Of a stretch of DNA of 64,000 nt, positions 8,229-48,498 are shown one piece after another. Every line of letters begins with the position of its first letter. The stretch's first letter is position 1. The position numbers were made by a program, and so were the translations under genes. Under the pieces are notes generated by a model. It saw only the letters and a program-made list of their open reading frames with translations, did not search any database and had not been told where the DNA came from. This DNA comes from Octopus vulgaris. Lineage: Eukaryota. The DNA lies in the NCBI GenBank assembly GCA_951406725.2, contig OX597830.1, positions 41,416,001 through 41,480,000 of the forward strand, written 5' to 3'.

Positions 8229-8589
8229 TATGTAAGAAAAATGAGTAATGGAGTAATAAATAAATAAACACAATACAAAAGCGACTCTTTTGTCATTTTG
8301 TCATTCTCATTATATTCTTGTTAGAACAAGTTTTATTTTTCCCTCAGCTTTTAACAATGTTTTCTTAAAAACAGTGAAACCTTGATTTTCCCATACATAA
8401 ATTAGATTAATTCTTCTTTCAACATAATTATTATTAATGTACCTATCCTTGACATCATATTTGTTATCAGTTTAATGTTTTATTGTTATTGTTAATACTA
8501 TTGTTATTTTTGTTGTTATAAATGTCTTTTTTTTTTAACATCTCTCTCTTTCATTCTCTTTTCCTCTCTCTCTCTCTCTCTCTCTTCAG

Positions 8590-9326
8590 ACACAGGAAAT
8601 GTGAAATCTTTTGCCAGACTTTGTGATAACATCAATAGGGGCAACAAATGTTTCCGTGACTCTAAACTTTTGACCTGTTATCAATCTTGTTCCACTGATT
8701 TTTGCAATAATGGTAACCCTGACCCCAGTTCTTTGATCATAATAGATTATTCTTCAGCTGCACGCACTGAAAATAGTTCCAGCCAAAGAAATTCTTCTGG
8801 AAACTTTGATCCAAACCGTAAAAGATTTCTTATGAGAAATAACACTTTTCTTCAATCAAGCAGGCAATTGAAAAAGAAGCATAATTCTATCAAGTTAATA
8901 GATTTTCACTTTGAAGAAGAAACTGATGATGTTAACCCAAAGAGAAATCTATCAATCAGTGCAATGCCAATGAAGAATACAAGTGTAAATATAATAGACA
9001 AATTTAGAAAGAAGCTGTTTGAAAACAATTCTTTATCTAGCTTTGTAAATGTCTTTATGAAACCACAGCCCTATTTAAAAGATGTTGAGCTTTACATGGC
9101 AAATAATTCTACAAAATATCCTCAGACAGCATTTGAACAAATTGCACAAAATCAGTCTCTTAGTAATAAGTCAAGTATTACAGAAGATATTACACAGAAA
9201 AAACAGTCAACATTTGCAAATCTGGCCAACAATTTCAATGATAATATTTCTAAAGAAGCAAATGAAGCTTTTCATGAAACTTCAACTGATACCGTTTCCT
9301 TAGATTCGAAATTCAATGATGATGAC

Positions 9327-9368
<42 letters not shown>

Positions 9369-9998
9369 AAAACAGCTGTGCAGAATGAAATTCTGGCAGA
9401 AAGCAATTTTTCTGATATGAATTTGGTAACAAAAAGTGACGGTTCACAACTAAACAATTCACAGGACAACTTGGCTCTTCAAAGATGGATAGAATTTGAG
9501 ATTTCTCAAAGGAGCCAACAAAATGATACAGTTGTATTGGAAGAAATTGCCTTAAACAATACTTCATCACTAGCAGAAGTGTTGAAATCATTGTTGTCAC
9601 ATAATCAAACCTTGCAGAACAACTTCATCACAGATATTTTGAACAACAGTTCCGCAGTGAATACATTAACTCTTGCTTCTACAGTAGCAACCAAACAGCA
9701 GGAACTGCCCTTGGCTGATGCTGTCTTCTTATCTTCTGATTCAAATGACATCATAAATGGCAAGAAAAAATCAAAGAACAATGAGAAAAAAATGGCTTTT
9801 GAACATAAAACAGATAATGACAAAAAGGAAACATATAAAGAAAATGAATGGAAAAGAAGAAAAAATGTCACAGTAAAACACAAAACTAATGTTACCGCAA
9901 ATAAATCTACCATGAATAATGGGATGGAAATATTAACAAGCAAACCAGGACTTCTCTTTGTCTGCTTGCTAAAGTTATCAGCTTTAATATTGTTCTAG
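8590..9998 (+). CDS. Terminal coding exon of a Ly6/uPAR (three-finger, quiver/sleepless-like) cell-surface protein with long stalk and GPI signal
   Basis: A (CT)n polypyrimidine tract precedes the acceptor AG at 8588-8589 (phase 1), followed by an open frame of ~469 codons. It encodes the LU-domain end (ARLC..NKC..TCYQSCSTDFCN), a Ser/Thr/Asn-rich stalk with many N-x-S/T sequons, an Asp17 run, and NNG + spacer + hydrophobic tail LLFVCLLKLSALILF*. Upstream exons were not identified with confidence. Confidence 0.8.
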
Positions 9999-15117: not shown

Positions 15118-15677
15118 CATGAGTCAAAAAGTAATGCCATTTTGTTTAGGATAGGTATAATTACCAATGCAGGAACATGTATCATACATCAAAATGAAGC
15201 TGGTCTTCTGTGGATCACATCCCTACTTCTCAACATAGTCACTGTTTCTTTGAATAGCAATGTTCCACCTTTGAATGAGAGCATGTATCTCTGCCCTGTA
15301 AAATTCTGTTGACTGTTCTTTGAGCCACTTCTTCACTACAGTTTTCATTTCTTCGTCACTAGAATAATGTTTGCCTCTCAAACCCTCTTTCATGGGGCCA
15401 AAGAGATAGTCTGAAGGCGCTAAATTATTCCAGTGACGAGAAAGTGAAAACTGTATTGAAGTGGCTCGAAGAACAGTCAACAGAATTTTATGGGGCAGGG
15501 ATATATGCTCTCATTCGAAGGTGGAACATTGCAATTGAGAGAAACGGTAACTATGTTGAGAAATAAGAATGTGATCCACAGAGGACCAGCTTCATTTTGA
15601 TGTATGATACATGTTCCTGCGTTGGTAATTATACCTGTCCTAAACAAAATGGCATTACTTTTTGACTCACTCTCGTA
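15118..15677. mobile_element. Fold-back mariner derivative (two inverted copies of the transposon 3' end)
   Basis: Arms of about 15121-15368 and 15424-15669 are reverse complements. The minus strand encodes LAPSDYLFGPMKEGLRGKHYSSDEEMKTVVKKWLKEQSTEFYRAEIHALIQRWNIAI, a mariner C-terminus. Confidence 0.9.
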
Positions 15678-24964: not shown

Positions 24965-25520
24965 TATGGCTGACCCCTTGTTATCAAGTATGGCCATTGC
25001 ACGAAGCTTAACTGTTACTGGTGCTGTGATTGAATGTGACTTTTTAGCCCAGCTAAAGATCTACATTGTCTTGTATAGAATTGGCAACTAAAACCTTTAC
25101 CGGTAATAGCCAGCTGTAGTTGTAACTGGGCTTCATGTACCTTTGCATGTCGTTTAAGTCCTCCTGCCGAATTACACTCTCTTCCACATGCCCGACAGAT
25201 ATGATTAGTATGGTGTGTTACACCACCACCAGTGGCCAGGTTGTCACTCATCTGTCTTGCTTTATGACTACAAAGATGGCTCTTGAGTCCAGCTTTACTG
25301 AGGCAGGGTCTTGCACAGACACTGCATGTCAGCATCATAGGAAGACCCTTCCCATCTGGAAGTGTAACAGCAATGCCCTTCCTGACATCCCTCCTTACTT
25401 TCTCATGTGCAACTCGAGATTTCTCAAAAGTGGCTGTCCCCTCGTGCACAATCCTTCTCCACCTGCTACGATCAATAGCTATGCCTTCCCATGTGTCAGG
25501 AGAGATGCAAGCATCTCTTA
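24965..25520 (-). mobile_element. RTE-clade LINE 3' end with three C2H2 zinc fingers
   Basis: ISPDTWEGIAIDRSRWRRIVHEG..FEKSR, then CSVCARPCLSKAGLKSHLCSH, CRACGRECNSAGGLKRHAKVH and CQFYTRQCRSLAGLKSHIQSQH. Short 3' UTR and (AT)n tail. Confidence 0.85.
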
Positions 25521-26951
25521 TATATATATACACACACACACACAACAGTCTTCTTTCAGTTTCTCTCTACCAAGTCCATTCACAAGGCTTTGGTCAGCTT
25601 ATGACTAGAGTAGAAGACGTTTATCCAAGGTGTCACATATTGATATTAAACCTGGAAAGCAGACTTCTTATCAGAAAGTTGCTGCTGTTATTTAAACAAA
25701 TTTACCCACAGCAGAACAGATTGCCCTGGAGCCCCCAACTGCATGTGTTAACTTCCTGTGATCTCCAAGCATAAATCCTGGATAAATCTTTATCCTTTAC
25801 TGGAAGTAAAATCTCATTTCTGTTGATATCCTCTAATTAATAGAAATGTCAAAAATGATTAAGAATTAAAAGCCAGAAACAGTAAATCCATTTATTATAA
25901 CCAGTAACAGAACTTAAATTTAATCAACACTTAATGGATTTTAATTGAAATGATCTAACCAACTACAATCTCATCATCATCATTGCATCATTGATGATGA
26001 TGATATATATATATATATATATATATAGTTCAAATTTACAGAAAACAAAAGACAAAGACAGGTGTGGGGACAACAAGCAGGTGTATTAATATATATATAT
26101 ATATTTTATCTTCTACTTGTTTCAGTCATTAGGCTGTGGTCATGCTGGAGCACCACCTGGAAGAATGAATCAACTCCAATACCTATTATTTTTAAGGCTG
26201 GTACTCATTCTATTGATGTCTTTTGCTGAACTGCTAAGTTAAGGGAATGTAAACACACCAACACAGGTTAGTCAAGCAGTAGTGGCGGACACAGACACAG
26301 ATACACACATATGTATATATACACACACAATAGGCTTCTTTCAGTTTCTGTCTTCCAAATCCACCAACAAAGTTTTGGTCAGCCTGAGGTTATAGTAGAA
26401 GACACTTGCCCAAGGTGCCATGCAGTGGGACTGAACCTGGAACCATGTGGTTGGGAAGCAAACATCTTACAACGCCAGCACACAACAGATATATAGATCC
26501 AATACCAGCAATCACACACTGAAACTAATGAATAATCAATTATTTAGAGAGGGGTGGAGTGAGAGTGTAGGTTAAGGCGAATGAATGAAGGGCAGAAGAT
26601 TAAAGGAGAAAGGATGTGAAGCAGTGGTTAGACAAAAGGCCTCTGTGGAAGGTATTAAGATTGACAAAGAGCCCAGTGAGCATCAAAGTTAACATGGCAG
26701 CATTAACAAGTCAATAGTATGAACAATGGCTGTCAGACATGAAGAGGATACATTCAGCAGTGGTCTTCCTTCCTGTTTTTTGTTTTTAATCTTCAATCAG
26801 TTGAAGGAGTTGAAAAGCATATGGCCTAGGAGTAAGGATGTTGCACTCACGATTGCCAGATCATGGGTTCAGTTCTCAAGTTGAGCAGCATGTTGTGCTC
26901 TTGAGCAAAACACTTCATTTCGCATTGCTCTAGAGCTGTGTGGGGATTGGT

Positions 26952-29153: not shown

Positions 29154-30881
29154 AAAGATATACAACAGTTACTTTCACTCAGTCACATTCTCAATTCAAA
29201 TACCACTAAGAGCAACTTTGTCTTTCCTCACTCTGGGTTTTATAAAATAGATGCCATCTATTTACTGCAGCTCACTCAATTAATGTTACCACTTCTCTGA
29301 AAACAATGAATTTGTACTAAATGTGAGAAATATTTACAACCCAAGATAACAAGATACACAGCAGCTCACTGGGTGGATGGTCAATACTTTATATCCAGAA
29401 ACATTAAGTTTCATGAAACTGTGTACCTCATCGTAAATAGATATTATGGGGAGGCACAGCTCAGAGTTGGTAGCAGTACAAGTCACTGTATACTCGATTT
29501 CTTTTGAACAGATTTATAAAGTGAGAGATGTTTTATGTTTATATCTCTCTAAACCATGAACTTCACAACAGCCCACATCTCTCAATTTATGGACAGCATG
29601 CAGTGCTGTATTGTGTTTTGATCCTTGAAAGAATTTAGCTATCAGGAGGGTACATTCTGCAAGTTCGACTTTCAAGAGGTAACTCTTTTTGAAAGCAAAA
29701 ATGTCTGTAGGGTTTCAATTACAAAGAGGGTTGCATCATATGCAAGACAATCAATTCTTCTAACAATAAATACAAAACAATGAAATTGGTCAACTACAAA
29801 TCACAACTTTGTGGTTGAGTGAGAGAGTGATTGAAAAACTAAATAAATTTTTAAAGATACCCAGTTGGGAAAAAATTTTAAGTAACTCTGAAACAATTTA
29901 AGTATATAACTAAATCTATAAAGGAATCAAAATACAAAATCTTACAAATGTAAAGTAATTTTCAAAATGATCAGAGTAATGGTGAAATATTCCAGAAATA
30001 GAAAAATTAATAAAAACATAAATGATGGAATGTATTGAAGTCTGGATTAGGATAATTATTGTTGTTCTTTTGGATTTTGTCCTTGAATATTCTTTTGTTA
30101 GAGAGACAGAAGGCCAAGGCAATAAAACAGAAAAAAAAACCCCTGAAAGTATGACAGTATCTTATCCTAATATTATATCATCTACAGCAAAGCACTTAAC
30201 ATTTCAATAACTCAGTCAACTTTGCTGTTAATAGATACAATGATGAGGTACATTTCACCAGTAGGAGAAACAAGGATACTGTAAAACTGATTAGTTTCAT
30301 TATTTAAAAAAAATAAATTGTTTAGATTAATTATTTAATTATCCAGAAATGCAGTAAAAACAGTAATTAAGTTAGTGTTAATATATTTATGTAATTAGCA
30401 TTAAAAATCTACTTAAACATACTTCAACAGTGAGGAAAAGACAACATTAGCATAACTAATATTATTTCAGTATTTAGTAAATCTCCCATCACTATTTCAG
30501 TAAAATAGGGTCAAGTCTATGGGTCACTGATGAAATTATTAAAATAATGCAGTCTTTTCATCACCACATAAATATTTCCAATTAGAACTTTTGGTGCTCA
30601 TTATAGGAGAGTGCATGGCCCATTAGTGTCAAGTTCATGAACTGTAATGGTCATGAGCTCATTTCCCAGACATTGTGTCCTTCAGCAAGGCATTTCATTT
30701 CACACTGCTCCAGTGAGTACCAGCAGTAGCTGGGAGTTAACCTTGTAATGGACCAGCACCCTGTTTGAGGAGAGTTTTGTGCTGTCACTTATATGCCGCT
30801 AAGTGACAAGATAGCTCTATATTTAAGAGATGAGAAATTATGTACATTTGACAGATATTTGTCCTCATCTTGTTTGTTGCT

Positions 30882-30924
30882 AACACGTTTCGGCTGACAT
30901 AACCTCCAACCTTCATCAGGTGTC
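30882..30924 (-). ncRNA. Minimal hammerhead ribozyme motif (inverted arm copy)
   Basis: Reverse complement reads GACAC CTGATGA A GGTTG gaggttatgt CAGCC GAAAC GTGTT. Confidence 0.7.
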
Positions 30925-30971
30925 TTGGGGAAATTTCGAACCTGGGTTCTCATTCCTAAGGTATTTTTCGA

Positions 30972-31008
<37 letters not shown>

Positions 31009-31109
31009 ATCCAGGTTCGATTCCAGGTAGTGACATGAATAATGATAATAATAATAATAATATAGAAAAATACCTTAGGAATGAGAGCCCAGGTTCAAAA
31101 TTTCACCAA

Positions 31110-31155
31110 GACACCTGATGAAGGCTGGAGGGTATATCAGCCGAAATGCTGTGTT
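31110..31155 (+). ncRNA. Minimal type I hammerhead ribozyme motif (Penelope-type), mutated stem III
   Basis: GACAC CTGATGA A GGCTG gagggtatat CAGCC GAAA tgct GTGTT: core boxes, perfect 5-bp stem II and stem I GACAC/GTGTT. Confidence 0.75.
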
Positions 31156-34100
31156 AACAACAAACAAGATGAGGACAAGTATCTGTCAAATGTAAATAAT
31201 GTAAAGTAAGAAGAGTTCTGCCATAATGAGCCTGTAGGCTGGAGACAGACATATGTTAAATATAGAATGAAACACTAACAATTGCTTTTCAAGTGGATGG
31301 CATCTCTGGGTTATCAACCCATGACATATATGTATTTAAATAGGGTATTTTTCTTTGTAATATTATTAATCTGCTTAGTAATTTTCTGACCAATATTTCA
31401 ACAAATAAAGTAAAGCCTATTGAGATCTCATAATATTGAAACATACCTAGAGTTGTCTCCCATCTTTCCTACAAGAACTGATTAAGTTGTTGAACTAGTG
31501 TTATCTTTTCCTCACAGTATAAGTATTTCTAATTAAATAGATTAACTAATCAAACTAGCTACAAAGACAGCTACTGTTTCCATTTTCTGATCGAGTCATT
31601 AGCATTACAAAAATCTGCACAAGAACATTCCAACAACTCATCTGAAGAATCCAAATTTGCAAAAATAGCTAACCTCATTAAACGTAAGGAAAACTTATAA
31701 AAGAATTGGTCTCTTATTTAAACATGAAATGAATATTGTCTTTTAAGAATCAAACTCTGCAACAAATTACATATTTATTTTTTAAAGTAGAAAAAGTGAA
31801 CCACAACCACCACCATCATCATTTGTTTCTTAACAGATGGCATTGCATTGTAGGCTTTCTTTACAAGTCTTACCAGTTTGTCTTAAAGTTGTACAAGGGC
31901 AATCATTAATTATCTGCACTGCATACCCGCTAGTCACTATAGTACAGCTTTGAATTTGAAATATCAAGTTGTTATTGCTTTAATAATAACAAAGTCTGTT
32001 GATGTTTTCAAAAGGAGAACCATGATTAATTTACATGTTTACAATAATATTGCATTATTCACATCAATAAAGTTGTTAACAGATAGACACTGCCCTGGTT
32101 TCTGTTTGCCCTATAGAAGGGCAGTGATCTGTGTTTCTGTGTATTAGAGATTGAAATCCATCAAAAGGTTTGAGCACAGCTTGAAAATTGTATTTTGCTG
32201 CTATGGACTGTCTACAAATAAATAGAAAAATTCAAAACTGATCATACAAGCATCACACATCAAAGAATTGGACACCACTAATGACAATACTGAATGAGTC
32301 TGTGTTATAGTTCTATTGAACAGACAGATGACTGATGGATGACATAGCAAAGTAGTTGTGATTTTGTCCATGAAATCATCCACAATAGACTTGGCCATGT
32401 TTAACAATAAAAGATCTCAAAGCACAGAGCTAGAACAAACAAAGGATTTTATCTAATGCTTTAATAATTCTGACATTTCACTGTCCCAAGGTGACACTTT
32501 ATTTTTGTGACCCTGAAACTATGAATGGTAAAATAAACTTTGGCAAGGTTCGAACTTAGAATGCAGTGAACAAAAAACAGCATGACATTTTGTTCAATAC
32601 TTTAACAACTCTGCCAATGCAAGTAAGTCAGGTTGTATACACTAACTCAACACATCTCAGCATTAGGTTTAACATATTTAACATAATTGGAGATCTGGTC
32701 CAATCGACATTTCAAGTCCAAAGCTGTACTACTGTGACTGGTGATGCATGTAATGATTAATTTTACCACAAATAGGGAAAAAAAAGTTACAAGTGCTTTG
32801 CTTGAAAATTAATGACATTAATGATATGCCTTCTAAAAATTATCCAGTCCAAGAATTTTCTGCTTGGTTGTTTTCTCAACTCATTTACACTCACGTTAAG
32901 TCAGCAGACCATACTCAATTCATATGCATTCTTATCCTCTACATCCACTGAGTATAACTCATTACCATACATCATCATATTTACTACACTGGGTGAAAAA
33001 AAAAAAAACCAAAGAAAAATCTTCCTTGAAAAAGAGAGAGAGACCATTGGTAGTATTTCCCAAGATAGATTCCATCACCTTCAGACTTCAACCAACACAA
33101 ACTACTGTTAGTCTCATCTCGAGTACTAATTATACTACACAGCTACTAATTCCAGTGAGCATACAATCAGTTCACAGACAAAGCTGCTCGCCAAAACAGC
33201 TATGCTAATACATTTGTCCCACCATCAACTCTAGCTTGTTATCAATGTCACAGATCTCACTGGATCTATTGAACATTATCTGTTTGTAATGACTACACAA
33301 TAATGATTTACATGTCTTACAGCTATCTTACCCTCCATTTGGTTTTTGCAATACATTTCTCTTCCATGTCAAATTGTTGTACCTTTTGACAGGGTATTAA
33401 TATTACGGTGGTGCATTGCCAGAATTGTTACAGTACAAAGACAAAAATGCTCAGTGGTATTTCTGGCTCTTTATATTCTGGGTGCCTTTAGCTTTTATTC
33501 TTCTGAAGTCAATAAATAAAATACCAGTTGAACACTAAGGTTGACGTAGGCAACTTTCTGCTCTTCAGAAAATTACTGGCTTTGAGCCAAAATCAGAAAA
33601 AATTATTATTATTGAGTGTGAGAGCAATGCATGCCATCAAAGTGACACTGGGGTACAAATATACGAAGCCCAGTATGCCCATCATGCGTACCCATCTGAT
33701 AAGAGTACACCATGCACATGCATCACAACCATATGTGCATGACATGGTGATTTCATATCAAGATAAACAGTGTATGACCTTAAAAATGGAGCCCTGTTAG
33801 AATTTCCTTCAGGTTGAGCAGCCCATCCTGCTCAAAAGGTCCCTGAATATTATTATTATTATTTCTTTCTGCTGCATTATTATTTCCTTGCTGATCAATG
33901 AACCTGGGTCTATGCGAGTCCTTGATGGGAGATACTAGTCGGAAGACCTCCAGGTACAGGAGAGCCATCATTGTCATCACTCATTATTACAGACTACATG
34001 TGCTCACTTTTTTCTTCTACACACAGTTAAGACCCTGTTGTTAATGAAGTTTTTAGAACATCAAACTACAAACTAATACCCTAATCTATGCCTATGTCCA

Positions 34101-34606
34101 CCTTTAAAACTGTAGACCCCAGCCAACCTTTCCCAGAGGCAAACTTAAATTTTTCTTGTATTTCAACAAGGCATTGAACAGTCTATTTGTGTGCAACGTT
34201 TTTATATGCAAGCATCAATTCCTGTAAACACTTATCAACATGCATACATACAAACACACATACACACAAAGAAAATAATACCAAAGAAAACCTGACAACA
34301 AAGTCTAGCCCTTGGTAATTCCTTATGCTCTGATACATCAAATTCCTTACTGGCATCACTGCCAACACTAACACTACTTTTAGCTTCTTTATCTCAGTCA
34401 CTTCCACAAGTCAGTCATTCGGATCTAGCATGCAAAAATTATACATATGCATGGTAATAAGATTCTACTTGAAAAATAAAATTTACAGCAGAATTACAAA
34501 ATCACAGTTTCTACAAAACTTCATTCTTCAAACTAATGAAATGTAGCAGAATGTTGAAGAACAGATTGCAGACGAACCAATCCCGCTCCCTCATCCCTAT
34601 AAAGGA

Positions 34607-34780
34607 TTATTTTTGGTTTAACATGTGGTTATGTATGGTTATCAACTCTTTGATAATGAGCTCTTCTATTTCAACTCCTTGTGAAAGACATTCGGCAGAC
34701 AGCAAGATTGGTTTTGAGGAGTCTTTGGTAACCAGAATTACCTCTTCTTTCCTTGTCTCAAGAAGGTTGGCAATGACTAA
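34607..34780 (-). CDS. PPCS: Phosphopantothenate-cysteine ligase, exon 7 (last coding exon)
   Basis: ttttccag|LVIANLLETRKEEVILVTKDSSKPILLSAECLSQGVEIEELIIKELITIHNHMLNQK*; phase 0. Confidence 0.93.
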   Translation of the reverse strand, partial: LVIANLLETRKEEVILVTKDSSKPILLSAECLSQGVEIEELIIKELITIHNHMLNQK

Positions 34781-35725
34781 CTGGAAAATTATAGAAAATG
34801 AAAATGATATTTATTGAAAGAATAAAGAGAGGAAAAAAGATTAGAGAAAAAGAAACATGGAATAAGATAGAGAGGAACAGAGTAGAAAGATACAATGGAA
34901 AAGGAACAGATTGAAAAAAGAATACAGTGAAAGGAAAGAATGAAGGGAAAGTAAACATTACCAAATGAAGAGGTTTCAGCTATTAACCAAATTTTCTCAT
35001 GTAGAAGTTGCTCTCCTAATTTAGTGTTAAATTTTGGTACAAAATTCTTTTCCTTTCTGTTTTAGGTTTGCAATGTGTATAAATTGCATCCCAGCTTTTT
35101 TCAGTTAAAATCAAAATGAAAACAGTGCAACTTACACATGAGCAAATATGGTATGTTTTTCATATACATGATATATATATACAACATATTAGAGTACAGA
35201 AGAAGTTAAAAGATGTCAGGGAATCCACTAATTCTAAGTCATAACTCATGCCACAATCATTTTCGTTTTTGGTTCTTTAAGATATTTCACTTTCTTCTGT
35301 AGCCAGAAAAGAGACACACAGACAATTGGCCTAGGCTTACTCAGTAGCACCACCTGGTAAATATTCACGCAGTACTGATACTTGCATGTATTGCTTCAAG
35401 TTTTGGCACAATGCCAGCAACTAGTTTAAGGGATTAGTTGATTACGTCAGCTCCAGCACTAGACTGGTATTTTATTTTGTCAAACATGAAAGGGTGAGAG
35501 TTGACCAGAATAATATAATATGAATTCGGAACAAAAAGAGCCAAAAGAAATGTTGCTAAGCAGTTTGTCTGACATGGTACCAACACATTGTAAATATTAA
35601 CCAGGTAGTGCTATTGAGTTGAACCATGTCTTAAGTCTGAGATCAGCAACTCCTTTTTGAAATAGCCAGCTTTTGATTTATTCTTAAATTTGCCCATACC
35701 CCTACTCTCTATATATTATCTTATA

Positions 35726-36211
35726 TTAGGTTGAGGAAAAAGTTTGTGTGCTGAACTTATGCCAAATGGTCGCACCATCAACGCTGAAGTTTACTGCAAG
35801 TAAGTTGATTGAGTTTATGATGCGCTGGTTGAAAAGTGCCCCAAGACTTGTTCATCGAAAATGCGCTTTGTTTCAACAAGACAATGCAAAGCCACATACC
35901 ACCAGAAAGACCAGCAGCAAGATTAAAGAACTGAACAGTGTGGAAGTTCTGCAGCATCCAGGCTATAGTCCAGATGTTGCTCCATCTGACTACGGTCTCT
36001 TCTGATCAATGCAGCACTTTATGAAAGTCATTCAATGAAGTTAAAGAAGCCTGCCAAGAACTTTTCGATTCAAATCTGAAAGCTTGCAGATCATTGGCAG
36101 AAGGTCATGGAAAAGGATGATCTTTATTTTGAAGAATAGTTGTTGTTTTTGAATAAATTCTTGCATAAAAAATTATTTTAACATAGTGCATGAACTTTGT
36201 CCTCAACCTAG
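35726..36211 (+). mobile_element. Internally deleted DD34D mariner with TIRs
   Basis: TA|TTAGGTTGAGGAAAAAGTT ... AACTTTGTCCTCAACCTAG|TA; encodes LFQQDNAKPHT..VEVLQHPGYSPDVAPSDYGLF. Confidence 0.9.
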
Positions 36212-36534
36212 TATTTAAAATATCACCATATAGTCCTCCATTTCTATTTTTGGCAATGTTTATGAAAGCAAAAATTATTACAAATTGTGGCTCAAAAGAA
36301 TCCACCGACTGCTCAATGGCCCACAAATACATTTAACTTTAAAATTTCTTAGAAAAAGGCAGATCCACAGACAACACCTCAATAACCCATTTGTTCACAG
36401 CATCCTGCTGTCAACCCTGCTTAAAGTAGTTACAGCTGAAATCTATCCAAAATTATATATAAAACTTACATTGTACATATGATGAATTATACATATCATC
36501 TTCATTTTCTCTAAGTCTCTAATTTCTATTTATA

Positions 36535-36750
36535 CAGAGTTGGCCAAAAGTCACCTGACCGTAAATCAAAACTCCATAAATAATATTTGTAATTCTGTAT
36601 TGACTTGAATGGAAAAATGTGTCGCTCAAGAAGGACTTCCGTTTGAACATATTTAGGTGCTTTTATTAAATTTATTCACTTGTTAAACATGAATAAATCT
36701 TGGAACTAAATGGTTGTGATTTACTGTCAGGTAACTTTTGGCCAACCCTG
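36535..36750. mobile_element. Tc1/mariner-type MITE
   Basis: TA|CAGAGTTGGCCAAAAGTCACCTGACCGTAAATCA ... TGATTTACTGTCAGGTAACTTTTGGCCAACCCTG|TA. Confidence 0.85.
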
Positions 36751-37162
36751 TATAGTGTATATATGAAGAGCTTGTAATTTTTAGAGGTACTTTACCACAC
36801 TTGCCTTGACATTGAGAGTTAGCGGTCTCACTTTTCAGGTAACAGTCTTTTAAACTTGAGCTATCGCTACCATATTTTCTCACATACAAGTCAAATTTTA
36901 TGGGCCAACATTTACAGTCTAAAATGTAGTTAAACTTACATACTCAAGATGATTTTGGAAGACCAAAAATTCCAAGTGGAATACAGCAGAGTTTGGAAAG
37001 ATAGTGATGATACTTGAGTGTTTATGCTACATATTTGCATTATGTACTACATTGAATTGTATTCTAGAAAATATGGTGAATAGTTTAAGGTAACAAATTT
37101 TGAAAAAAAGGTATCACCTGAAAATTTCCCTAACAATATAGGAAAATATTTTGTTTCCTTAC

Positions 37163-37228
37163 CTGGTGTTGATATTTTTCTAGAGCTGCTTTTGATTTCG
37201 ATATCAGCAAACTTCTGTTAGTTTCTAA
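37163..37228 (-). CDS. PPCS: PPCS exon 6
   Basis: cttttag|LETNRSLLISKSKAALEKYQHQ|gtaagg; completes the conserved SFK-LET motif. Confidence 0.95.
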
Positions 37229-38110
37229 CTAAAAGTAACAAAAAGTCATTTTTGTTATGAATTTGCTTTAAATTAAAATCCATAACATGGAAAGACAAAA
37301 AAAAAAGGGAAAAAAAAGAACGTTTCATTTAAGACGGAAGATGCATTGTGGTTAAGAAGTTTACTTTGAATTGTTAACCACACAGTCTCAAGTTCAATCC
37401 CATCCTTCAATTTAGAATCGCAGACAGATAGAGCTTGTGTGCATGTGCAACACTGGGATTATGAGATCATCTAAGGGAAGGAAACTCTGAGAGAAAATCA
37501 CCCCACCCTCACCCCACTTCAAGTGCTGAAGTTTGGCCATTGGGCTAATCCACCTTTTGATTACAGAAACTTTAAACACTCCGAAGAATCTACAATAACT
37601 TGGAGAGGTTGCTAAACTAGAAATAGAAGGAAGCAGTTGTGAATCACAGCCACTGAAGGACAGCATGAAGAGAAAGAGAGAGAGAGTGGAAGCCTTATGT
37701 GTCACTTGGTATGAAGTGGAAAGAAGAAAAGAAAGGTGAAAAGGTAAAGGTGACTTTTTCAGGATTTGAACTCAGAATTCAGTGAACTCAAACAAATACC
37801 ACATGATATTTTGTTCTACACTTTAACAACTCTGCCAGTTTGCCACCTGTATAAGTCAGGTTGTATATCTTAATTCAACATATCTCACTTGCCTGACTCT
37901 GCATGCATACAGATTATCATCTTATTCAAAGGGAAATTTATTTCACATTAGCTTTGCACTGGACACAGTAATAGTTGAATAGCTAAGAAGGTTCCCAAGG
38001 TTCCAGGTTCATGCCAGAATGGAACATGGACATTAGATGATGACGATGACGCACTAGTCAAGTATATGTATTTTGATTGAGAATGTGCAATATAATGAAA
38101 TGTTACTGAC

Positions 38111-38230
38111 CTTAAAAGAAATTATAAAAGCATCTGGTGCCCAGTCTTTGACAAGTGGTTCCAATAATTTAGGAACCAATTGAAGAGATAATTGTAGAGA
38201 GCCATTTGAGGACTGGATTTTGTGTTCTGG
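38111..38230 (-). CDS. PPCS: PPCS exon 5
   Basis: ttttgtag|PEHKIQSSNGSLQLSLQLVPKLLEPLVKDWAPDAFIISFK|gtcagt. Confidence 0.96.
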
Positions 38231-38682
38231 CTACAAAAGGAGACAGTAAATATCAGTTAACATGGCAGCAATATAGAAACTATTTCAAGGGAGGGAGGGG
38301 TTCTAAATGGTCAATCAACATCCTAGAAATAGCAAGATAATTTCTCTCAAATCATAGCCAAATAACTTAAAAGCAAAAGAACACGTTGGATAATGTAGTT
38401 CTAAATAGACAATGCCTGAAAAAATAAAGAAAAAAAATGATATGGTTATGGTTGGATTTTTTTTTATCATAGATCTTCTCTATCAACCAAGACTGACCAG
38501 GGTTAAACAACATCAATTTAGATAATGTATGGGCAACCTTTCTCGAAAAGTGGGCCATGTGAGACATGGCTCATTATCAGGTGAGCCATACTACTAAAAA
38601 AAAATTCAAGGTAATTTACTGTTAGGAATGTCATTCACAAAGTCCCACAGGCTGCACTTTGATTGCCCCTGATTGATCTAAA

Positions 38683-38922
38683 TCAGTGGTTCTTAACCAT
38701 TTTTCACCTGTGGACCCCTTTGGTTCCTATTTTACTCAGATGAACTCCCAGAGTCAGTCAATGTTTAAAAAATCCTATTATATTTTTTATAATTAAACAT
38801 TATTAGAAATTGTATTTTTTAAAAATTGATAAAATATTTTGTGTATAGCTGGAGTATAAGCAATTTATTGCAAATAAATTTTAACAACAAAATCTTATGT
38901 GGGCCCTGGTCAAGAACCCCTG
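38683..38922. mobile_element. hAT-type MITE (CAGTGGTTCTTAACC...GGTCAAGAACCCCTG)
   Basis: Charlie-like TIRs; related reverse-oriented copy at about 50130-50360. Confidence 0.7.
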
Positions 38923-39175
38923 ACGTAGATAATAAAAGATGCTATAAGTGTTATTGAGCGTTGTTGTTGATTAGTCCCTGATCAGCCCTGACTGACCAGA
39001 GCTGTGATCAAACATGTTCCAGTCACAAGAACCTAATTCTTTTTTCTCACAGACAAAATACGTAGAGCAACATGCAAGGTGATTGTCATAGACAGGTTAG
39101 TGTCAAAAGAGTTAAACAAAGAAGATTATCAGATTTGAAGAGAAGATAAAAGATAAGATAAAACAGCATCCATAC

Positions 39176-39390
39176 CATTTGATCTTTGGGAATATAGAAG
39201 TCAGACACGGCTGCTGCAAGATAGAGCATGGCATCGAGCTGGAGAGTTTTTAATGCCAGAGCTGCTATGCGGAGTAAATACAAATACTCACTCAATGTTG
39301 TAAAATCTACTGATAGTAACATTTCAGAATGTGTTACCTTTTGATAGATGTGTAAAATCTTGCTAATTTTCTCCTCATACTTGCCTTGCA
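39176..39390 (-). CDS. PPCS: PPCS exon 4
   Basis: tacatag|(V)QGKYEEKISKILHIYQKVTHSEMLLSVDFTTLSEYLYLLRIAALALKTLQLDAMLYLAAAVSDFYIPKDQM|gtatgg; contains the YLAAAVSDFY signature. Confidence 0.97.
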
Positions 39391-39475
39391 CTATGTACCG
39401 GAAAGAAGAAAAGTAAACGCATAAATAAACACAATAACCATAAGAGAATTAAAACAGATAAACAAAAACGAACCA

Positions 39476-39994
39476 CCGTAAATCCTCGAGTATAGTCTGC
39501 CCTTGAGTATAATATGCAGGGGATTTTTAGGGGACTGTACCTTTGAAAAACCTAAACCTTGTGTATAATACGCACCCCTTCTCTAACTTGAGTCAAGGTC
39601 TATATAATGTCCTTGGTTTGTAAAAATGTATACAGTAACGTCCTTTATTATTATTGTATATATAACATAATGCAAACGTATAACTTTTTTGTGCATTTTG
39701 TTTGCAGAAAATAAAGAAGTAACAGTAGAAACAGTAATAACGTTTAATAAATGTTGCTTACTGCAAGTTATGGATGATTCTTTTATAACTTCATTACTTT
39801 CAGGCTTAGCTTAAGGTATTTTCGCGCCCGACATCACAAAATGCGTCTGAATAAACATTGCCAGACAGCAAATAGAGACTCGGACATTGCTTAGAAAATA
39901 ATTTTCATTTTTAACCTCGTATATAGTACGCACTAGGGATTTTGACCATTAAATTTTGGGGAAAAAATGCGGATTATACTCAAGGATTTACAGC
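39476..39994. mobile_element. pogo/Tc2-like non-autonomous DNA element
   Basis: CCGTAAATCCTCGAGTATAGTCTGC ... GCGGATTATACTCAAGGATTTACAG TIRs, with repeated GAGTATAA subterminal motifs. Confidence 0.7.
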
Positions 39995-40854
39995 AGTTGA
40001 CAGTTCTTGCAAAAAAAAGAAAACCAAGTTCATAATTTGGCTAAGATATAAAACATGTTTAGCCTAAGGTCAGTCTTTACTGAGTAAACCTATGATCAAG
40101 AAGCATTCCTCCTCAGAATATCCCACATAATATAACTGGGATGGCATTCCAAATAGAGATTTGGCTGCTGTTTCTAATTGGTTATGAGATTACACAGAGG
40201 AGGGGTTCTGTTAGTTTGTTGTTTAAACCCAGGTCAGTCCTGATTAAGCAGACATATGATAAAAGATCACCTCCGTTTTTTGTTGTATTTGCTTTTCTCT
40301 GAATACAGTATAAAGCATCTAGAATGATATAAATGTAGGCATTTTCATTTTTTCTTTAAATGTTAATTTCAAGGAACAGTTGGGTGTTATTTTTAGCAGG
40401 CCAAGAGTTCTGGTTCCATATTGACCTTGTAGGATTGATAAAATGCCAGTCAAGTACAGCAAGTCGACATTATTGATTATACTCTGCTTTCAAAATTAAC
40501 TTTACATAAGAAATCATTTTAATAAAAGAAAGAATTACCATAGCATTGTTAGAGCAATGGAAAAGAATTCTTTGCAGTATTTCTTCCAGCTCTTTACATT
40601 TCGGGGTTCAAATCTTACCAAGGTCAACTTTACCTTTCACCCCTCTGGAGTCAATAAAATAATGTAGCTACACTTACTGGTCCTGTGCATAATTCAGAGA
40701 CAAATAACTATTCTTATTATGAAAAATTTGCATTGTAACTTAGCATTATGTAGTATACATGCTAATTCCTTTGGTTTTTCTTTCTTAGTTTTTAAGGTCC
40801 TTACCTTAGTTAATCTTATTACTGCCTTAATCCTAATACTGATTCTTCTTTATT

Positions 40855-41215
40855 TTAGAGATGAGGAATTATGTACATTATTTACATTGGACAGATAGTT
40901 GTCCTCACCTTGTTTGTTACCACAATGTTTCGGCTGATGTACTCTCCATCAGGTGTCCTGGTGGATTTTCAAACCCAACCCTTTATTTGACTAATAGAGT
41001 ACTTTCATTTCATTCCTAAAGTATTTTTTGCTGATGTTATTATTATCATTTATTCAAGTCACTGACTGGGATTGATCCAAGAATCTTGAGGTTAGTAGCT
41101 CATGCTCTTAACCACTACGCTATATGCCCGTGGGCTTGAATAAATAATAGTAATAGCATCAGCAAAAAGTACCTTAGAAATGAGAACAGAGTACCCCATT
41201 AGTCAATGTATAATA
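40855..41215 (-). mobile_element. Second copy of the tRNA-head + hammerhead retroelement (complete tRNA-like head 41058-41129, short inverted tail)
   Basis: Reverse complement reads GGGCATATAGCGTAGTGGTTAAGAGCATGAGCTACTAACCTCAAGATTCTTGGATCAATCCCAG, then (AAT)n, then ...GACACCTGATGGAGAGTACATCAGCCGAAACATTGTGG. 41136-41207 is an inverted copy of the post-head segment. Confidence 0.8.
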
Positions 41216-41768
41216 CACATTCTAAAATTTTTTCAACCATCAGAATAACTTGGGACTTATGAAAGGAAAGCTTTATATTACTCAGGCGTATGGAACAAGG
41301 GACTAACTAAAAGTCTGAAGACAACGATCAACATTTAGGAGAAACTTATGGAAATGTTTCAGACAGACAAAGGGTTAAAAAGAACTGGGCTGTCCACTTG
41401 GGAAGCCTTCACCTTAGACCATGAGAAAAATCAATGTAACTTTTAAAATTTAGAGAAAGGTTTTTCAACATTTCTTTAAGCCTTTAGCATTCGAGCCAGC
41501 CATGTCTGGTCCAAATATTCTACCTGTTTTATGTTAAAACTAGCCAGATTCAGCATCTTAAACCTACCTTGCAATGCCATTCTAAAAATAAACAATCACA
41601 TTATCAAAATCCCTCAAACCTACAGGATAACGCATGATTAATTCAAAACAATGTGAACGAAAAGGCATTACATCTGACAGAATAATATGAATGCTAAAGG
41701 GTGAAAAGACAAACAAGAGTAACAGAAAATTATTACTGTGATAACGAAGTATTTTTAATTAAACTTAC

Positions 41769-41908
41769 CTGCAAGTGACTGTGCCTGGCCATCTTCACGG
41801 AATTCAAGAAAATCAAGTAGATTTTTCCGTGAAAAATTGCGAGAATATGGCTCAAGAGAACCGTTTCGGTGTAAGAATATCACTGCATAACCACTATTGA
41901 GAAAATAT
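41769..41908 (-). CDS. PPCS: PPCS exon 3
   Basis: ataaatag|(E)YFLNSGYAVIFLHRNGSLEPYSRNFSRKNLLDFLEFREDGQAQSLA|gtaagt. Confidence 0.95.
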
Positions 41909-43337
41909 CTATTTATAAATTAATTGAAAATAACATTTGCCTTCTATAAAATCATTGAGCTTGCTTTTTTTAAATATATAAATGCAAAATGGTAAATTTT
42001 CAAGATGAGATCAGATGTGGGAAAGTTTCCTTGAAACTTCAATTTAAGCTGATATTGGAAAGAATGTTAAATGGTTAGTGAATTAATTAATTTCCTTAGC
42101 ATTTGTTTTTTTCCTATGCTAACAAGAATTTGGTGAGAATTTGAGGCAGGATTCTATGGCCAGATGCTAGTATAAAAAAAATATGTAAAAACAAATATAA
42201 ATGAACAAATGCTCTTCCTTTCACCAAACCTTAGCCATTTTTAAGCAAGAAATTTTTTTCTAGAAACCTTTGAAAGTGCAGAGAGACAAATTATAATGTC
42301 AACAAGGAATGTCATCTTCATTATAATTTTGCTTAAGCAGTGGGTGATGTGTGGAACATAAATATTCACACACATCCATATGACAGGCTTCCTGCAGTTT
42401 CCGCTTACCAGATTCACTCACAAAGTATTGGTCAGCCTGGGGATATCAATGCCTTTTGTAGAAGACATTTACCTGAAGTGCCATGCAGTGGGATCAAATC
42501 TGAAACCATGTGGTAGCAAAGCGAGCAAACTAAAGTAAATAGATTTGACCCTCCATTGATGGACACCTCCGACCAATAAAGTATTTTTTAATCTTTCTTG
42601 CTATTCTGTGGGTGAAGCATGAAAATTACAATTTTTTTTTGTCTTTTCAATAGTAGATACATCAATCAAAGTTCTGTTTTTAATGTATAGTAAGTCTCCC
42701 TTTTCTCACACCCTTTCCTCCAAATCCTTTAAGTATGGAAATTTAAATCAGATTCCAAATTCCTTTCAATATTTTCCATCAGCATCTTTTCACTGATAAA
42801 TGGTAGAATTACATTATTTACATTTGATGGATATTTGTCCTCATCGTGTTTGTTTTTAACACGTTTCGGCTGATATACCCTCCAGCCTTCATCAGGTGTC
42901 TTTGGGAAATTCCAAACCTGGACTCTCATTCCTAAGGTATTTTTGATGTTATTATTATATGGTAGAATTAGTCAGTCCATTGATTTCATTAAGTATTGGT
43001 GCTTGAGACCAGTTAGTCTACTTTCCCTTTTGCTAACACACTACACTCACGGAGTGGTTGGTGTTAGGAAGGGCATCCAGCTGTAGAAACACTACCCGAT
43101 CAGACTGGAGCCTGGTGCAGCCTCCTGGCTTCCCAGACCGCAGTCGAACCGTCCAACCCATGCTAGCATGTAAAACGGATGTTAAACGATGATGATGATG
43201 ATGATTCTTTTTCCCCTTTTTCTGTCTTAAAGATTTTATCAAAGTTACTAAACAAGACATCATTTTGAAAATAGTAAAAGCAAATATAAATTCGTATAAT
43301 ATAAAGTTTTAAAAAAAACCCCACAGAATAAGGATAC
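41909..43337 (-). other. PPCS: PPCS intron 2, probable U12-type (minor spliceosome) GT-AG intron
   Basis: Donor GTATCCTTATT. No polypyrimidine tract; TTTTCAATTAAT branch-like motif 11-12 nt before the exon. Confidence 0.8.
42812..42958 (-). mobile_element. 5'-truncated copy of the hammerhead retroelement with 12-bp TSD
   Basis: Flanked by ATGGTAGAATTA at 42800-42811 and 42959-42970. Hammerhead motif at 42858-42900 (reverse complement GACACCTGATGAAGGCTGGAGGGTATATCAGCCGAAACGTGTT). Confidence 0.85.
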
Positions 43338-43426: not shown

Positions 43427-46400
43427 CTAAAAAAAATAAAAAGGTAAACACAACAATGAGGTACTTAGAAAATGCAATTTATATAACACAAATCTGTAAA
43501 TAAATGATTATGATAAATATATAAAGCAGAGATTTCTAAAACCCTTTGTGTCTTGAGAGGGAAACCCTTTAAACTCCAATTGTATCATCTACAGAAAGTT
43601 AGTTTGAATGGCTAAACCACATTCCTCACCCCAAACTAATTTAAGAGAATTAAAATCAGATCTACTAGTTAAATACATGCTAGTTATATGATATATCATA
43701 TTTTCCACCATACAAATCATTTTTCAGACAAAAATTTTTTAGACAAAAATTGAAAGTAAAAATACATAGGCTGACTTACACACTAAGACAATTTTGGTGG
43801 ACCAATAATTCCATGTGAAATGCAGCAAGATTTGGAAAGATAGGGATGGTGCTGTTTGAATATTTACACTATATACTATGTTGACTTGTATACCAAAAAA
43901 ATACAGTATCTGCTCAGTCAATGACAAAATGCAGTGCCTACCAGGAACCAGGAACCATCAATTTTTCAGCTCTTAGTTAACACCTCCTCTACTCAGCCAA
44001 CCACACTTCCCAATAAATATTGAACAAATATCAAATACATTCATCATCATCATAATCAAATTTTATAATCTAGATTCTTTTACTTGTTTCAGTCATTTGA
44101 CTGCAGCCATGCTGGAGCACCGCCTTTAGTCGAACAAATTGACCCCAGGACTTATTCTTTGTAAGCCTGGTACTTATTCTATTGGTCTCTTTTGCCGAAC
44201 TGCTAACTTACAGGGATGCAAACACGCCAACAGTTGTCAAATGATGGAGGGGGAACAAACACAGACATAAAAACATATACTTACATACATACATATATAT
44301 ACACACACACACACACATTTAGACGATGGGCCTCTTTCAGTTTCTGTCAACCTAATCCACACACAAGGCTTTGGTCAGCCTGAGACTATAGTAGAAGACA
44401 CATGCCCAAGGTGCCACACAGTGGGACTGAACCCAGAAACATGTCATTGGTAAGCAAGCTACTTGCCACACAGCCACTCCATGTGATTATAATAATGTTC
44501 TCAAACAACAATAACTCCTGGCCTTCATAATTCGAAACACTGCCTCACAACCACTGGTCTTTGGCATTCATTGATAAGAAAACCAAGGAGTCAAGTTCTA
44601 ACTTTTTCTACATAAAAAGGGTTATTATACTTTGGCACCATTTCTAATAAAATAGGTCTATCCAAAACGAAACCAAACTCTTAAAACAGCCTCTCAACTA
44701 ACCTGAGCAATCTAATCATGATTGTAGTACTGAGTATGGATAGCTCTGACCTTTAACTTATTTTACCCAAATCATGCCACACAAGTCATCAATCTACATG
44801 TGAATGTAAACGAGGAACAGAAAAAGAAAAATTAAGTTGAACCCTGCAAGTTATTTCCCTTGATAGGCCGTAAAAAATTGATTGTATTTTTACCATTATA
44901 GACTGTGGATCAAGGCTAGTCTACACCAGAACTCTCATCCAAAAAGCTATGATTACAGGCGTTCTAACCGTGACAACCTCGTCTCTTCTTTTCAGCCAGT
45001 GTATCAAGGACAACATTATTCAATATGTCCTTTTTTTTTTTGACAATAGGGTTAGATTTAGCTAGATTTGAAGGACTCGTTAGTAAGTTGAACAAGTATG
45101 TAGAACAGTTCTTAATCACATTTCCTAGGACTTCATGTGGGGTTCATGCATAAATAAATAAATTTTTCTTTGACTGATTTGCGTTTTACTTTTTATGGTG
45201 TGGCCCAGGTTCTGAATTTGGCCTGGATTTAGAAAAGGTTGAAAACCACTGACATAGAGGTTCTCACATTGGATTGATATTACTAGTGTAAATAATCCAG
45301 ACTGATATAATCAGTGGGGATAAGTGGTTGTTTATAATAGTAAAGAGGATAAATATCTCACATCATCTAACTTCATCTCACATTAGGAATAATATTTTTT
45401 TTTTACTTGTTTCAACCATTAGACTGTGGTCATGCTGGGGCACCGTCCTGAAGAATTTTTAGTTGAATGAATCTACTCTAGTTATTTAAAAAAAAAAGTT
45501 TGGTAGTTATTACATAGGTCTCTTTTGCCAAACTGCTAAGTTATGTGGACATAAACACACCAACACCGGTTGTCAAGCAGTGATGGGGGACAGGCAGATA
45601 CACACATGCACATGACAGATTTTCTTCAGTTTCCTTCTACCAAATCCACTCACAAGTATTTGGTCAGTCAGAGGATATAATAGAAGACACTTGCCTAAGG
45701 TGCCATGTGGTGGGACTGAACTCAGAACCATGTGGGTGGGAAGCAAGCTTCTTCACACCCACCCACGCCTGTGCCTCAGATACCCGTCTTCATCTAATAA
45801 CGACCAATCTAAGGAGTGTCCCAACAATTGATTACCTCAAAGTTCAGTCCTTGTTGCAGTGTGGTATGACTTTGGTAGCTATGGCAGCAGAGTGCAAGCT
45901 CCTGATGGAGCCTCCCTTATTGGATACATCAAAGGATGGAGACCAGACTAATAGGGACCACCTCTGCCCAGAGGTAAAAATGGGTTTAGTTAGAGTCAAC
46001 ACACCTATCCTACCATGTAGAAGAAAGTAAAGTTAGAGAAACGTCAATTCAAAAACCAACAAGACCAGGGAGAAGAAAAGACAGCCCAAAATCAAGAGAT
46101 TGGAGAAAAAGTCATTGATAGCTCCATTAAGAGTGAAGGGTTCAACCCAGTACTTCCATTACGTATGAAGTCCTGCTTCTTAATCAGTATGCCGGGAACA
46201 TCCACTGTACATTTTTTTTCTATAACCATCATTTGCATTGAGTCCACAGTATTGATTTGTTCCTACCTATTCTCTTCTATATATTGAACAAAACCACTCT
46301 CCAGATGGCATATTCTGATTTTAATTAGTAGGTAATTATCAAGAGACTCTGGCCCACATACTTATGTTATAAAGACTTTATCTTTCGTTTTCAATTTCAG

Positions 46401-47724: not shown

Positions 47725-48293
47725 GTGTGTGTATATGTTTGTGTGTCTGTGTTTGTCTCCCTAGCATTGCTTGACAACCGATGTGGTGTGTTTACATCCC
47801 AGTCACTTAGCGGTTCGGCAAAAGAGACCAATAGAATAAGTACTGGGGTTACAAAGAATAAGCCCCAGGGTCAATTTGCTCGACTAAAGGCGGTGCTCCA
47901 GTATGGCCGCAGTTAAATGACTGAAACAAGTAAAAAAAAGTATATTTTCATTTAACCAGAGCCAGCTCATGATTATTGTGGGATAAGCTCTCATTAAATA
48001 TAGGATTTGTGTGGATCAGCAAAATACTTTATATTTCATGCTGATAACTTTTAAACAACTTCAACTATGCTTTACTCTTTTACTTGTTTCAGTCATTTGA
48101 CTGTGGCCATGCTGGAGTACCGCCTTTAGTCGAGCAAATAGACCCCAGGCCATATTCTTTGTAAGCCTAGTACTTATTCTATTGGTCTCTTTTGCCGGAC
48201 CGCTAAGTTACAGGGACGTAAATACACCAGCATCAGTTGTCAAGCGATGTTGGGAGGACAAACACAAACACACAAACATATACACACACATAC

Positions 48294-48339
<46 letters not shown>

Positions 48340-48498
48340 GATTTCTTTCAGTTTCTGTGTACCGAATCCACTCACAAGGCTTTGGTCAGCCCAAGGCTAT
48401 AGTAGAAGACACTTGCCCAAGGTGCCACACACTGGGACTGAACACGGAACCATGTGGTTTGTAAGCAAGCTACTTACCACACAGCCACTCCTATGCCT
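47505..48498. mobile_element. Inverted (tail-to-tail) pair of SINE family A copies in PPCS intron 1
   Basis: 47505-47940 (+) and 48071-48498 (-), with a spacer of ~130 bp. Confidence 0.9.

Follow-up and report, generated by a model that had tools for sequence, protein, structure and literature searches.

The window analysed here is a stretch of 64,000 nucleotides of Octopus vulgaris DNA (assembly GCA_951406725.2, contig OX597830.1, positions 41,416,001 to 41,480,000) that contains three copies of one repeat, near 31, 41 and 43 kb. The complete unit of this repeat is composed of a tRNA(Arg)-like head, an (AAT)n tract, a body with a hammerhead ribozyme motif, and a tail, and it is almost certainly the pseudo-long terminal repeat (pLTR) of an autonomous Penelope-like element (PLE) of the Penelope/Poseidon type. 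This identification is based on the architecture of the open reading frame (ORF), on the homology of its reverse transcriptase (RT) and endonuclease (EN), and on a ribozyme-encoded peptide common to the element and the protein P0009. An earlier note on this DNA had taken the repeat for an independent non-autonomous hybrid of a short interspersed element (SINE) and a retrozyme; that reading is not tenable, as this head belongs to the autonomous element itself, where it is present in 28 of 30 copies that bear the EN.

The window copies were scored against the family majority sequence, and body and head positions are given in the coordinates of that majority. All three lie where the earlier note had placed them, and the inverted arms, the A box and the B box that it had claimed can be read off the sequence. 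The 31 kb copy is a tail-out inverted pair. Its left arm (30813..30973, minus strand; body positions 1-173, 89% to the majority) contains the pLTR body, that is, 5' codons of the ORF, with a long tail end, and includes a hammerhead at about 30882-30924 with a 3-nt deletion at the cleavage site and a change in stem II. The (AAT)n tract of this arm (30974..31005, minus strand) was scored by Tandem Repeats Finder as 10.7 copies of period 3. The 3' part of the tRNA(Arg)-like head follows at 31014..31037 (plus strand, 91% to the head majority), with the B box GGTTCGATTCC at 31014-31024. The right arm, which spans 31015-31203 (plus strand) as an arm of the inverted pair, contains (AAT)n and body with a short tail end at 31038..31203 (body positions 2-143, 94% to the majority), the ORF ATG at 31081-31083 and a hammerhead at 31110-31155 in which stem III is altered and stems I and II are part of the minimum free energy (MFE) fold.

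The primary arm of the 41 kb copy (40846..41040, minus strand; body positions 32-171, 82% to the majority) contains body and long tail, a 7-nt deletion in the hammerhead core, and a foreign segment near 40976-41009. The complete tRNA-derived head of this copy lies at 41055..41135 (minus strand, 84% to the head majority) and is nearest to tRNA-Arg among 30 genomic tRNA hits. Besides a B box, it carries the A box TAGCGTAGTGG at 41112-41122 (minus strand) and, where the transcript is proposed to start, the 5' palindrome GCCC-AC-GGGC. A short inverted second arm (41136..41187, plus strand) consists of (AAT)n and the first 28 nt of the body and stops ahead of the ribozyme. The 43 kb copy is a single 5'-truncated arm (42810..42958, minus strand; body positions 1-143, 92% to the majority) that ends in (AAT)n, has the short tail end and lacks 3 nt at the scissile bond of the hammerhead. 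The perfect 12-bp target-site duplication (TSD) noted earlier, ATGGTAGAATTA, flanks this copy at 42800-42811 and 42959-42970 (plus strand). Rfam (E<=1) detected neither a hammerhead nor a tRNA in the window; its hits there and in five loci were all to miRNAs and snoRNAs and were driven by microsatellites. ARAGORN found no tRNA in the window. Generic repeat finding in the window was dominated by microsatellites.

The sequence upstream of the head in two loci (L029 and L027) reads as the C-terminus of a GIY-YIG endonuclease. Among 30 EN-seeded loci, the head directly follows the ORF end in 28 and is present as a remnant in the other two, with a spacer of about 30 nt between the ORF stop and the head. 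The order of the element is ORF stop, spacer, head, (AAT)n, ATG, hammerhead, two tail ends and the remaining ORF. An autonomous PLE sharing the hammerhead and tail, which the earlier note had suggested looking for, exists in near-full copies (L103, L239/L274) that read body-tail-ORF-EN-head-body; L103 reads body-tail-ORF-EN-stop-spacer-head-(AAT)n-body-short tail and so has the form pLTR-ORF-pLTR. The reading frame opens at an ATG within the body; the segment after the head is consequently the first 50 or so codons, and the hammerhead lies inside the ORF. The body and tail of the supposed SINE are therefore not a unit of their own, both being the start of the ORF of the autonomous element. The N-terminus of P0009 is the same hammerhead-encoded peptide (TPDDG..PKRCVNN versus TPDEG..PKRCVNN).

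A majority sequence built from 57 fragments has a coding length of about 830 aa, split over two frames. Over this length the two frames show 45% and 61% identity to P0009, and 34% and 40% to Anolis P0087 (836 aa), which we infer to be PAc. The RT matches Pfam RVT_1 at E 1.4e-10 and has 365 homologues at E<=1e-20. The C-terminal GIY-YIG domain was identified by alignment of the L045 fragment with the EN of P0087 (E 9e-41) and that of P0025, residues 405-484 of which match PF01541; the CCHH-type EN feature was also located through this alignment, and Pfam gave no GIY-YIG match on the decayed EN fragment itself. The Cys-rich zinc-finger linker between RT and EN, a trait of Neptune and Nematis, is absent from the alignment and present in a second family of the same genome (L264). 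These sequence features place the element, as far as homology can tell, in the Penelope/Poseidon clade. The proposal that the repeat is mobilised by a Penelope RT/GIY-YIG protein, with inverted pseudo-LTR structures, is borne out by this ORF and by the inverted pairs described below. The second PLE family (L264-L269, e.g., C4:91,752,000-91,760,500) is young and probably still active: it has the Cys-rich linker, an intact 1008-aa ORF and 493-bp direct repeats with 98-99% identity among copies, and was used as a control. From its motif it is presumably Neptune-type.

The genome searched comprises 2.8 Gb in 227 contigs. The head is present in 31 of 40 body-seeded loci and the body in all 30 head-seeded loci, which upholds the linkage of head and ribozyme against an independent insertion of the head. 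The body is likewise present in 27 of 29 position-ordered head-pattern loci, head sequences without it being rare (2/29). An exact 34-nt tail pattern matched 4,005 times (reversed control, 0). Exact 22-mers from the body, the head, the segment just upstream of the head and the ORF 5' region gave 11,131, 2,931, 991 and 56 matches, respectively, and their reversed controls gave none. These counts were calibrated by division by the share of covering copies that match exactly (43/108, 27/135, 19/43 and 3/12, respectively; sets seeded on or beside each pattern were excluded), which yields rough estimates of 28,000 body/tail ends, 15,000 heads, 2,000 upstream segments and 200 ORF 5' regions. The calibrated count thus drops about 7-fold over about 75 nt between the head and the sequence just upstream of it. 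The copies diverge from the majority by 5-6%. No intact ORF was seen among the copies examined and the longest open frames are below 620 aa, so the family looks decayed and inactive. The short and long copies showed no diagnostic subfamily differences: the gap between them exceeds 22 percentage points in three columns, of which two lie in the head and the third is the variable tail position. The view of the short copies as a SINE family with a lineage of its own was thus not sustained. Several loci (L002, L010, L012, L025, L033, L044, L065 and L123) contain another repeat of up to about 600-850 nt inside or beside the (AAT)n tract, which may be the 3' end of a microsatellite-targeting element, perhaps one of the Dong/R4 kind.

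The anatomy of insertions was studied in position-ordered tail-pattern matches on contig C1 (30 loci and 60 fetched regions), a sample that favours less diverged copies. A duplicate (L012), the last three listed matches and L299, which overlaps L298, were left out, giving 89 loci. Tail-out inverted pairs occur at 52 of these loci, and 48 of the 52 pairs have one long end (about 175) and one short end (about 142-149). A TSD of at least 7 bp was found at 21 of the 89 loci (1.6 in controls), with a mode of 12 bp (10/21). As the arms of a pair differ in their ends, they are more likely to stem from two priming events than from simple fold-back copying of a single complementary DNA (cDNA). By analogy, the anatomy of the pairs fits that of PAc, in which two adjacent internal RT start sites are used in vitro and extension takes place on both strands (PMC11167929); an optional tail has been described for PLEs (PMC8557442). 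The family offers genome-scale support (48/52 pairs) for two-start-site priming on both strands, a mode reported so far in vitro for one PLE, and this support holds whichever polymerase transcribes the element. Two loci, L407 and L408, have the 5' part of the ORF joined straight to the 5' edge of the head, as do L413 and L414. The first two share their junction (ORF position 233 to head -7/-6), which suggests that they descend from a derivative with a deletion or that RT changed template on reaching the 5' end of the RNA.

The earlier note had also described a minimal type I hammerhead in the repeat. As a property of the family this was correct: the majority sequence has all elements of the motif on the sense strand and linked to the head, namely the CUGAUGA and GAAA core, an extra A ahead of stem II, stems I and II of 5 bp and 5-6 bp, respectively, a palindromic ACGU stem III and an NUH triplet, and its MFE fold includes stems I and II. 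In the window itself none of the four arms is intact: the scissile bond is affected by the loss of 3 nt in two of them, the third has lost 7 nt of the core, and stem III is changed in the fourth. Two samples of arms keep the intact motif in 20 of 62 and in 26 of 124 cases. The same core, with differing stems that are mostly still paired, is present at eight PLE loci chosen by hand from metagenomes, from other organisms, and the layout of the motif is that reported for the minimal hammerheads of PLEs (PMC4209133). The z-scores of the fold are weak, at -1.0 to -1.4. When two monomers were cofolded with ViennaRNA, the MFE structure was not the dimeric hammerhead, and RNA-seq reads did not pile up at the predicted cleavage site; neither result is informative, the libraries being fragmented in the latter case. 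Cleavage by the predicted ribozyme would fall about 70 nt past the ATG; it would probably require a dimer or the help of protein, and is probably not needed for insertion; in PAc, hammerhead cleavage needs protein and is dispensable in vitro (PMC11167929). The commonest deletion in the body is that of 3 nt at the scissile bond (body positions 87-90), with 12 cases versus at most 3 elsewhere; it often affects only one arm of a pair, and about a tenth of arms carry it. The deletion may be a scar left by RT crossing cleaved RNA, which is no more than a hint, or may come from slippage in the slippage-prone GTTGTGTT.

The head majority (165 copies) has perfect A and B boxes, in agreement with the tRNA-like head claimed earlier. 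Among 30 genomic tRNA hits, which cover few isotypes, it is nearest to tRNA-Arg(TCG) and tRNA-Arg(TCT), with 49 of 73 positions identical. It no longer folds as a tRNA: the cloverleaf is decayed while the boxes are perfect, and ARAGORN at a relaxed threshold detected no tRNA in the head majority and only noise in 90 loci. A search for the tRNA head by an A/B-box regular expression and BLAST in 62 other PLE loci found none, these loci being distant (35-50% identity) and many lacking a pLTR. The literature search found no report of a tRNA-derived segment in the pLTR of a PLE; Repbase, Dfam, SINEBase and the 1994 octopus SINE paper lay outside that search, so a library name may exist.

The 5' ends of copies cluster at the 5' edge of this head. 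Among 87 head-bearing arms, 79 reach position +20 of the head; 63 of them end between -16 and +20, and the other 16 run on past -16, 14 by more than 100 nt. When all 149 arms are sorted by their end points, the edge accounts for 58, the body for 41, the (AAT)n tract for 25 and the 3' part of the head for 9, and the remaining 16 extend beyond the edge. The loss per nucleotide is 0.02-0.05 at the 5' edge, versus about 0.002 in the ORF and 0.001-0.004 in the 3' half of the tRNA segment, so that the rate at the edge is about 20 times the background. Stalling of RT on tRNA structure was considered as the main cause of the cluster and ruled out, because the loss lies at the 5' edge of the head, which is not where RT would first meet that structure. 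Many copies keep native bases between -6 and -1, and a start at G(-6) therefore fits better than a cut at +1.

Transcription of the ORF by Pol III would predict that the sense strand is free of runs of four or more T (T4), the terminator of this polymerase, and this prediction was set ahead of counting. Over 2.63 kb, the sense strand has no such run and the antisense strand has 29. The expected sense counts under three null models are 3.1 (own codon usage, P=0.022), 5.8 (P=0.0007) and 5.0 (P=0.006). Natural fragments of the element contain 22 T4 runs in 67,430 nt (0.33 per kb). The controls were 79 metagenome PLE loci, 62 of which have a usable span; these 62 spans have a median of 3.7 T4 runs per kb, and 2 of them have none. 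For 44 control PLE ORFs of at least 400 aa the observed/expected ratio is 1.11, and one of these ORFs lacks T4. The 12 among them with a similarly low T content have a median of 1.7 per kb, one having none, and the second PLE family of the same genome has 14.

The reading that brings these observations together is that the autonomous PLE swapped its Pol II promoter for a Pol III promoter captured from a tRNA(Arg), cleared its 2.5-kb ORF of Pol III terminators and sheds SINE-like copies, tens of thousands of them, from its own 5' end; this is given about an even chance. In its transcriptional part, which is favoured over the alternatives below and held to be evenly balanced as well, the upstream pLTR provides the Pol III start at its head, the polymerase continues through the ORF, and the short copies are 5'-pLTR-primed cDNAs that run off the 5' end of the RNA. 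Pol III would start at about G(-6), ahead of tRNA +1. A dimeric protein would then bind the ORF 5' region of the RNA and cut both target strands about 12 bp apart, and RT would prime at two internal sites separated by about 26-32 nt, in the manner demonstrated in vitro for the PAc element of Anolis. From the 5' pLTR, priming would give a cDNA of about 270 nt running off the RNA 5' end, and hence the SINE-like short copies, whereas priming in the 3' pLTR would give rarer copies that run into the ORF. Two cDNAs would be joined at their 3' ends by microhomology, often at the GCCC-AC-GGGC palindrome, into tail-out inverted pairs.

Several points weigh against Pol III transcription of the whole element. 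The main unexplained step is translation, since a Pol III RNA would be uncapped and this one would have an upstream ORF of 2 codons. The Penelope of D. virilis uses a TATA-less internal promoter like that of a long interspersed nuclear element (LINE) (PMC2377424). The strictest null for the T4 count gives only the modest P=0.022. T3 and A4 runs are also slightly low (P about 0.05-0.06), so the building of a majority sequence may itself shorten runs. The RT-EN spans of L167 (3263-5288) and L186 (107-2446) are T4-free without a visible tRNA head; both loci are unrelated to the family, although no other metagenome PLE locus reaches the best-segment identity of L167 (50%). The edge cluster is stronger at inverted junctions (51/61) than in copies joined directly to the flank (12/18), so the palindrome contributes to it. 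Three copies (L348, L397 and L412) have ORF-3' sequence upstream of head-body-ORF-5', and some templates thus began upstream of the head; this layout fits tandem read-through and does not separate the models. Three raw RNA-seq runs of about 12 million reads each were mapped to L348 and gave 6,824, 5,235 and 4,782 reads, equally on both strands; one contig set was mapped as well. No start or end pile-ups were seen in the three runs, 74-76% of the reads run into unlike sequence, and depth just upstream of the head is 0.4-0.75 of head depth, a weaker step than that in the genome. The 5' part of the ORF is covered at no more than about 1% of the depth of the body. Reads and contigs show expression dominated by read-through copies without defined ends, and the RNA-seq data are uninformative as to a Pol III start, neither supporting nor refuting it.

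In a possible, less probable arrangement, the one nearest to the earlier note, the work would be divided: Pol III would make only short SINE-like RNAs from solo or 3' pLTRs, to be mobilised in trans, and the mRNA would come from Pol II or from host read-through. The excess of short copies over ORF-end copies (about 7:1) and over ORF-5' copies (about 70:1), the presence of both boxes in every solo copy with a full head, and the precedent of Pol III and hammerhead in the Sm-alpha repeat of Schistosoma speak for it, as do the three copies whose templates ran through the pLTR from upstream. However, such a division does not predict a T4-free ORF, and Pol III starting from the upstream pLTR would meet no T4 until beyond the ORF in any case. 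SINE-specific mutations that would mark a separate subfamily are absent. For PAc, the template has to include the first 172 nt of the ORF (PMC11167929). Solo copies extend only to +128 or +154 from the ATG, so by analogy they may be poor substrates. It is unlikely that the head is a passive passenger, a tRNA pseudogene or SINE head captured in the 3' UTR (untranslated region) of the PLE without a promoter role, with the 5' cluster arising from palindrome fold-back or annealing, from RNase P-like cutting or from a coincident Pol II start. Many junctions are indeed centred on the palindrome or on other microhomologies of the head, RNA-seq shows no discrete start, and 2 of the 62 control spans have T4-free ORFs without a head. 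A passenger would nevertheless leave several observations unaccounted for: the cluster persists at the direct junctions, cutting at +1 would remove the upstream native bases that many copies keep, the boxes are perfect in a decayed cloverleaf, and heads hardly ever occur without a body.

Hammerheads, tails and inversions of PLEs, retrozymes and Sm-alpha are already known. The octopus element shares with Anolis PAc a single ORF with RT and C-terminal GIY-YIG, partial-tandem pLTRs, a hammerhead that overlaps the ORF start, an optional tail of about 30 nt that results from the use of two internal RT start sites, priming of both target strands and frequent inverted 5' copies (PMC11167929). It differs in the tRNA-derived A/B-box segment and (AAT)n upstream of the ATG, none being reported for PAc in the available text of that paper, in the pile-up of copy 5' ends at the tRNA segment, and in a sense strand without T4. 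The promoter and transcript start of D. virilis Penelope also lie inside the upstream pLTR; its promoter is, however, TATA-less and LINE-like with a downstream promoter element, the element has an intron, and the word tRNA is absent from the main text of the report (PMC2377424). Sm-alpha and Sj-alpha of Schistosoma are short repeats in which a Pol III promoter is followed by a type I hammerhead (PMC6765202, PMC8490949), but they are non-coding and often tandem, and the available text of these reports demonstrates no place for them in an autonomous element; in octopus the same layout would form the promoter end of a coding retrotransposon.

The non-LTR retrozymes are short hammerhead units from PLE pLTRs (bioRxiv 10.64898/2026.07.22.740005). 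A comparable array in octopus (L031; C2, about 2,734,200-2,736,030, minus strand) has 9 near-identical, head-less units of about 215 nt, each consisting of (AAT)n, body, hammerhead and long tail with the tail fused to (AAT)n, and appears to be a retrozyme-like derivative of the pLTR. Tandem units each with a hammerhead were seen in this one array among 40 body-seeded loci; unlike the retrozymes, most octopus copies are single or inverted and have a tRNA head, and the window copies are single or inverted. Cassandra, Helenus and Ajax also have a sequence derived from a small-RNA gene inside a retroelement terminal repeat (PMC10886601), but are non-autonomous LTR elements, whereas the PLE described here is autonomous and protein-coding. 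Two cephalopod repeat papers (one of them PMC13282606) mention Penelope, in their available text, only as a class.

The tRNA-derived SINEs, including OK, OR1 and OR2 of octopus, share the tRNA-derived head with A and B boxes, the short length and the very high copy number. Unlike them, the repeat described here has a 3' part that is the 5' coding start of a PLE and not a LINE 3' tail, has no poly(A), and has its head also in the autonomous partner. The OK, OR1 and OR2 SINEs were reportedly described by Ohshima and Okada in 1994, and OR1 or OR2 is said to be a CORE-SINE; they were compared by description only.

The element shows how the end of a PLE can be mis-annotated as a SINE, and it links PLE pLTR promoters, hammerhead-bearing SINE-like repeats and retrozymes, until now described apart. 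The RNAs that Pol III makes are generally held to be short and non-coding, and to our knowledge every autonomous retrotransposon studied to date relies on Pol II or, for R2, on co-transcription by Pol I. If Pol III does transcribe the octopus element, its RT-endonuclease mRNA would be highly unusual and would raise the question of cap-independent translation. A SINE and its partner would then be combined in one element, which would offer a route for the origin of Pol III/hammerhead repeats of the Sm-alpha kind. Co-transcription of R2 by Pol I is described in PMC2377424.

Other features of the window were also recorded. An exon-like ORF at 39086-39448 (minus strand) has the motif LYLAAAVSDFY and no Pfam hit, and resembles phosphopantothenate-cysteine ligase; the nearby repeat copies may be intronic. 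A 500-aa ORF at 8496-9998 (plus strand), without a Pfam hit, is Cys-rich at its start (CYQSCSTDFCN) and contains a long acidic region of low complexity. A decayed transposase-like ORF at 6379-7876 (plus strand), also without a Pfam hit, is assumed to be hAT-like. An ORF end at 25015-25566 (minus strand) contains C2H2 zinc fingers typical of a LINE C-terminus and has weak Pfam hits. A different abundant SINE-like family, which we take to be the known octopus CORE-SINE, is present at 26263-26484, 44259-44480, 45548-45769, 48270-48491 and other positions; BLAST gave no match between it and the tRNA(Arg)-like head. A 212-nt inverted repeat at 15120-15331 and 15458-15669, 92% complementary with a 126-nt spacer, resembles a miniature inverted-repeat transposable element.

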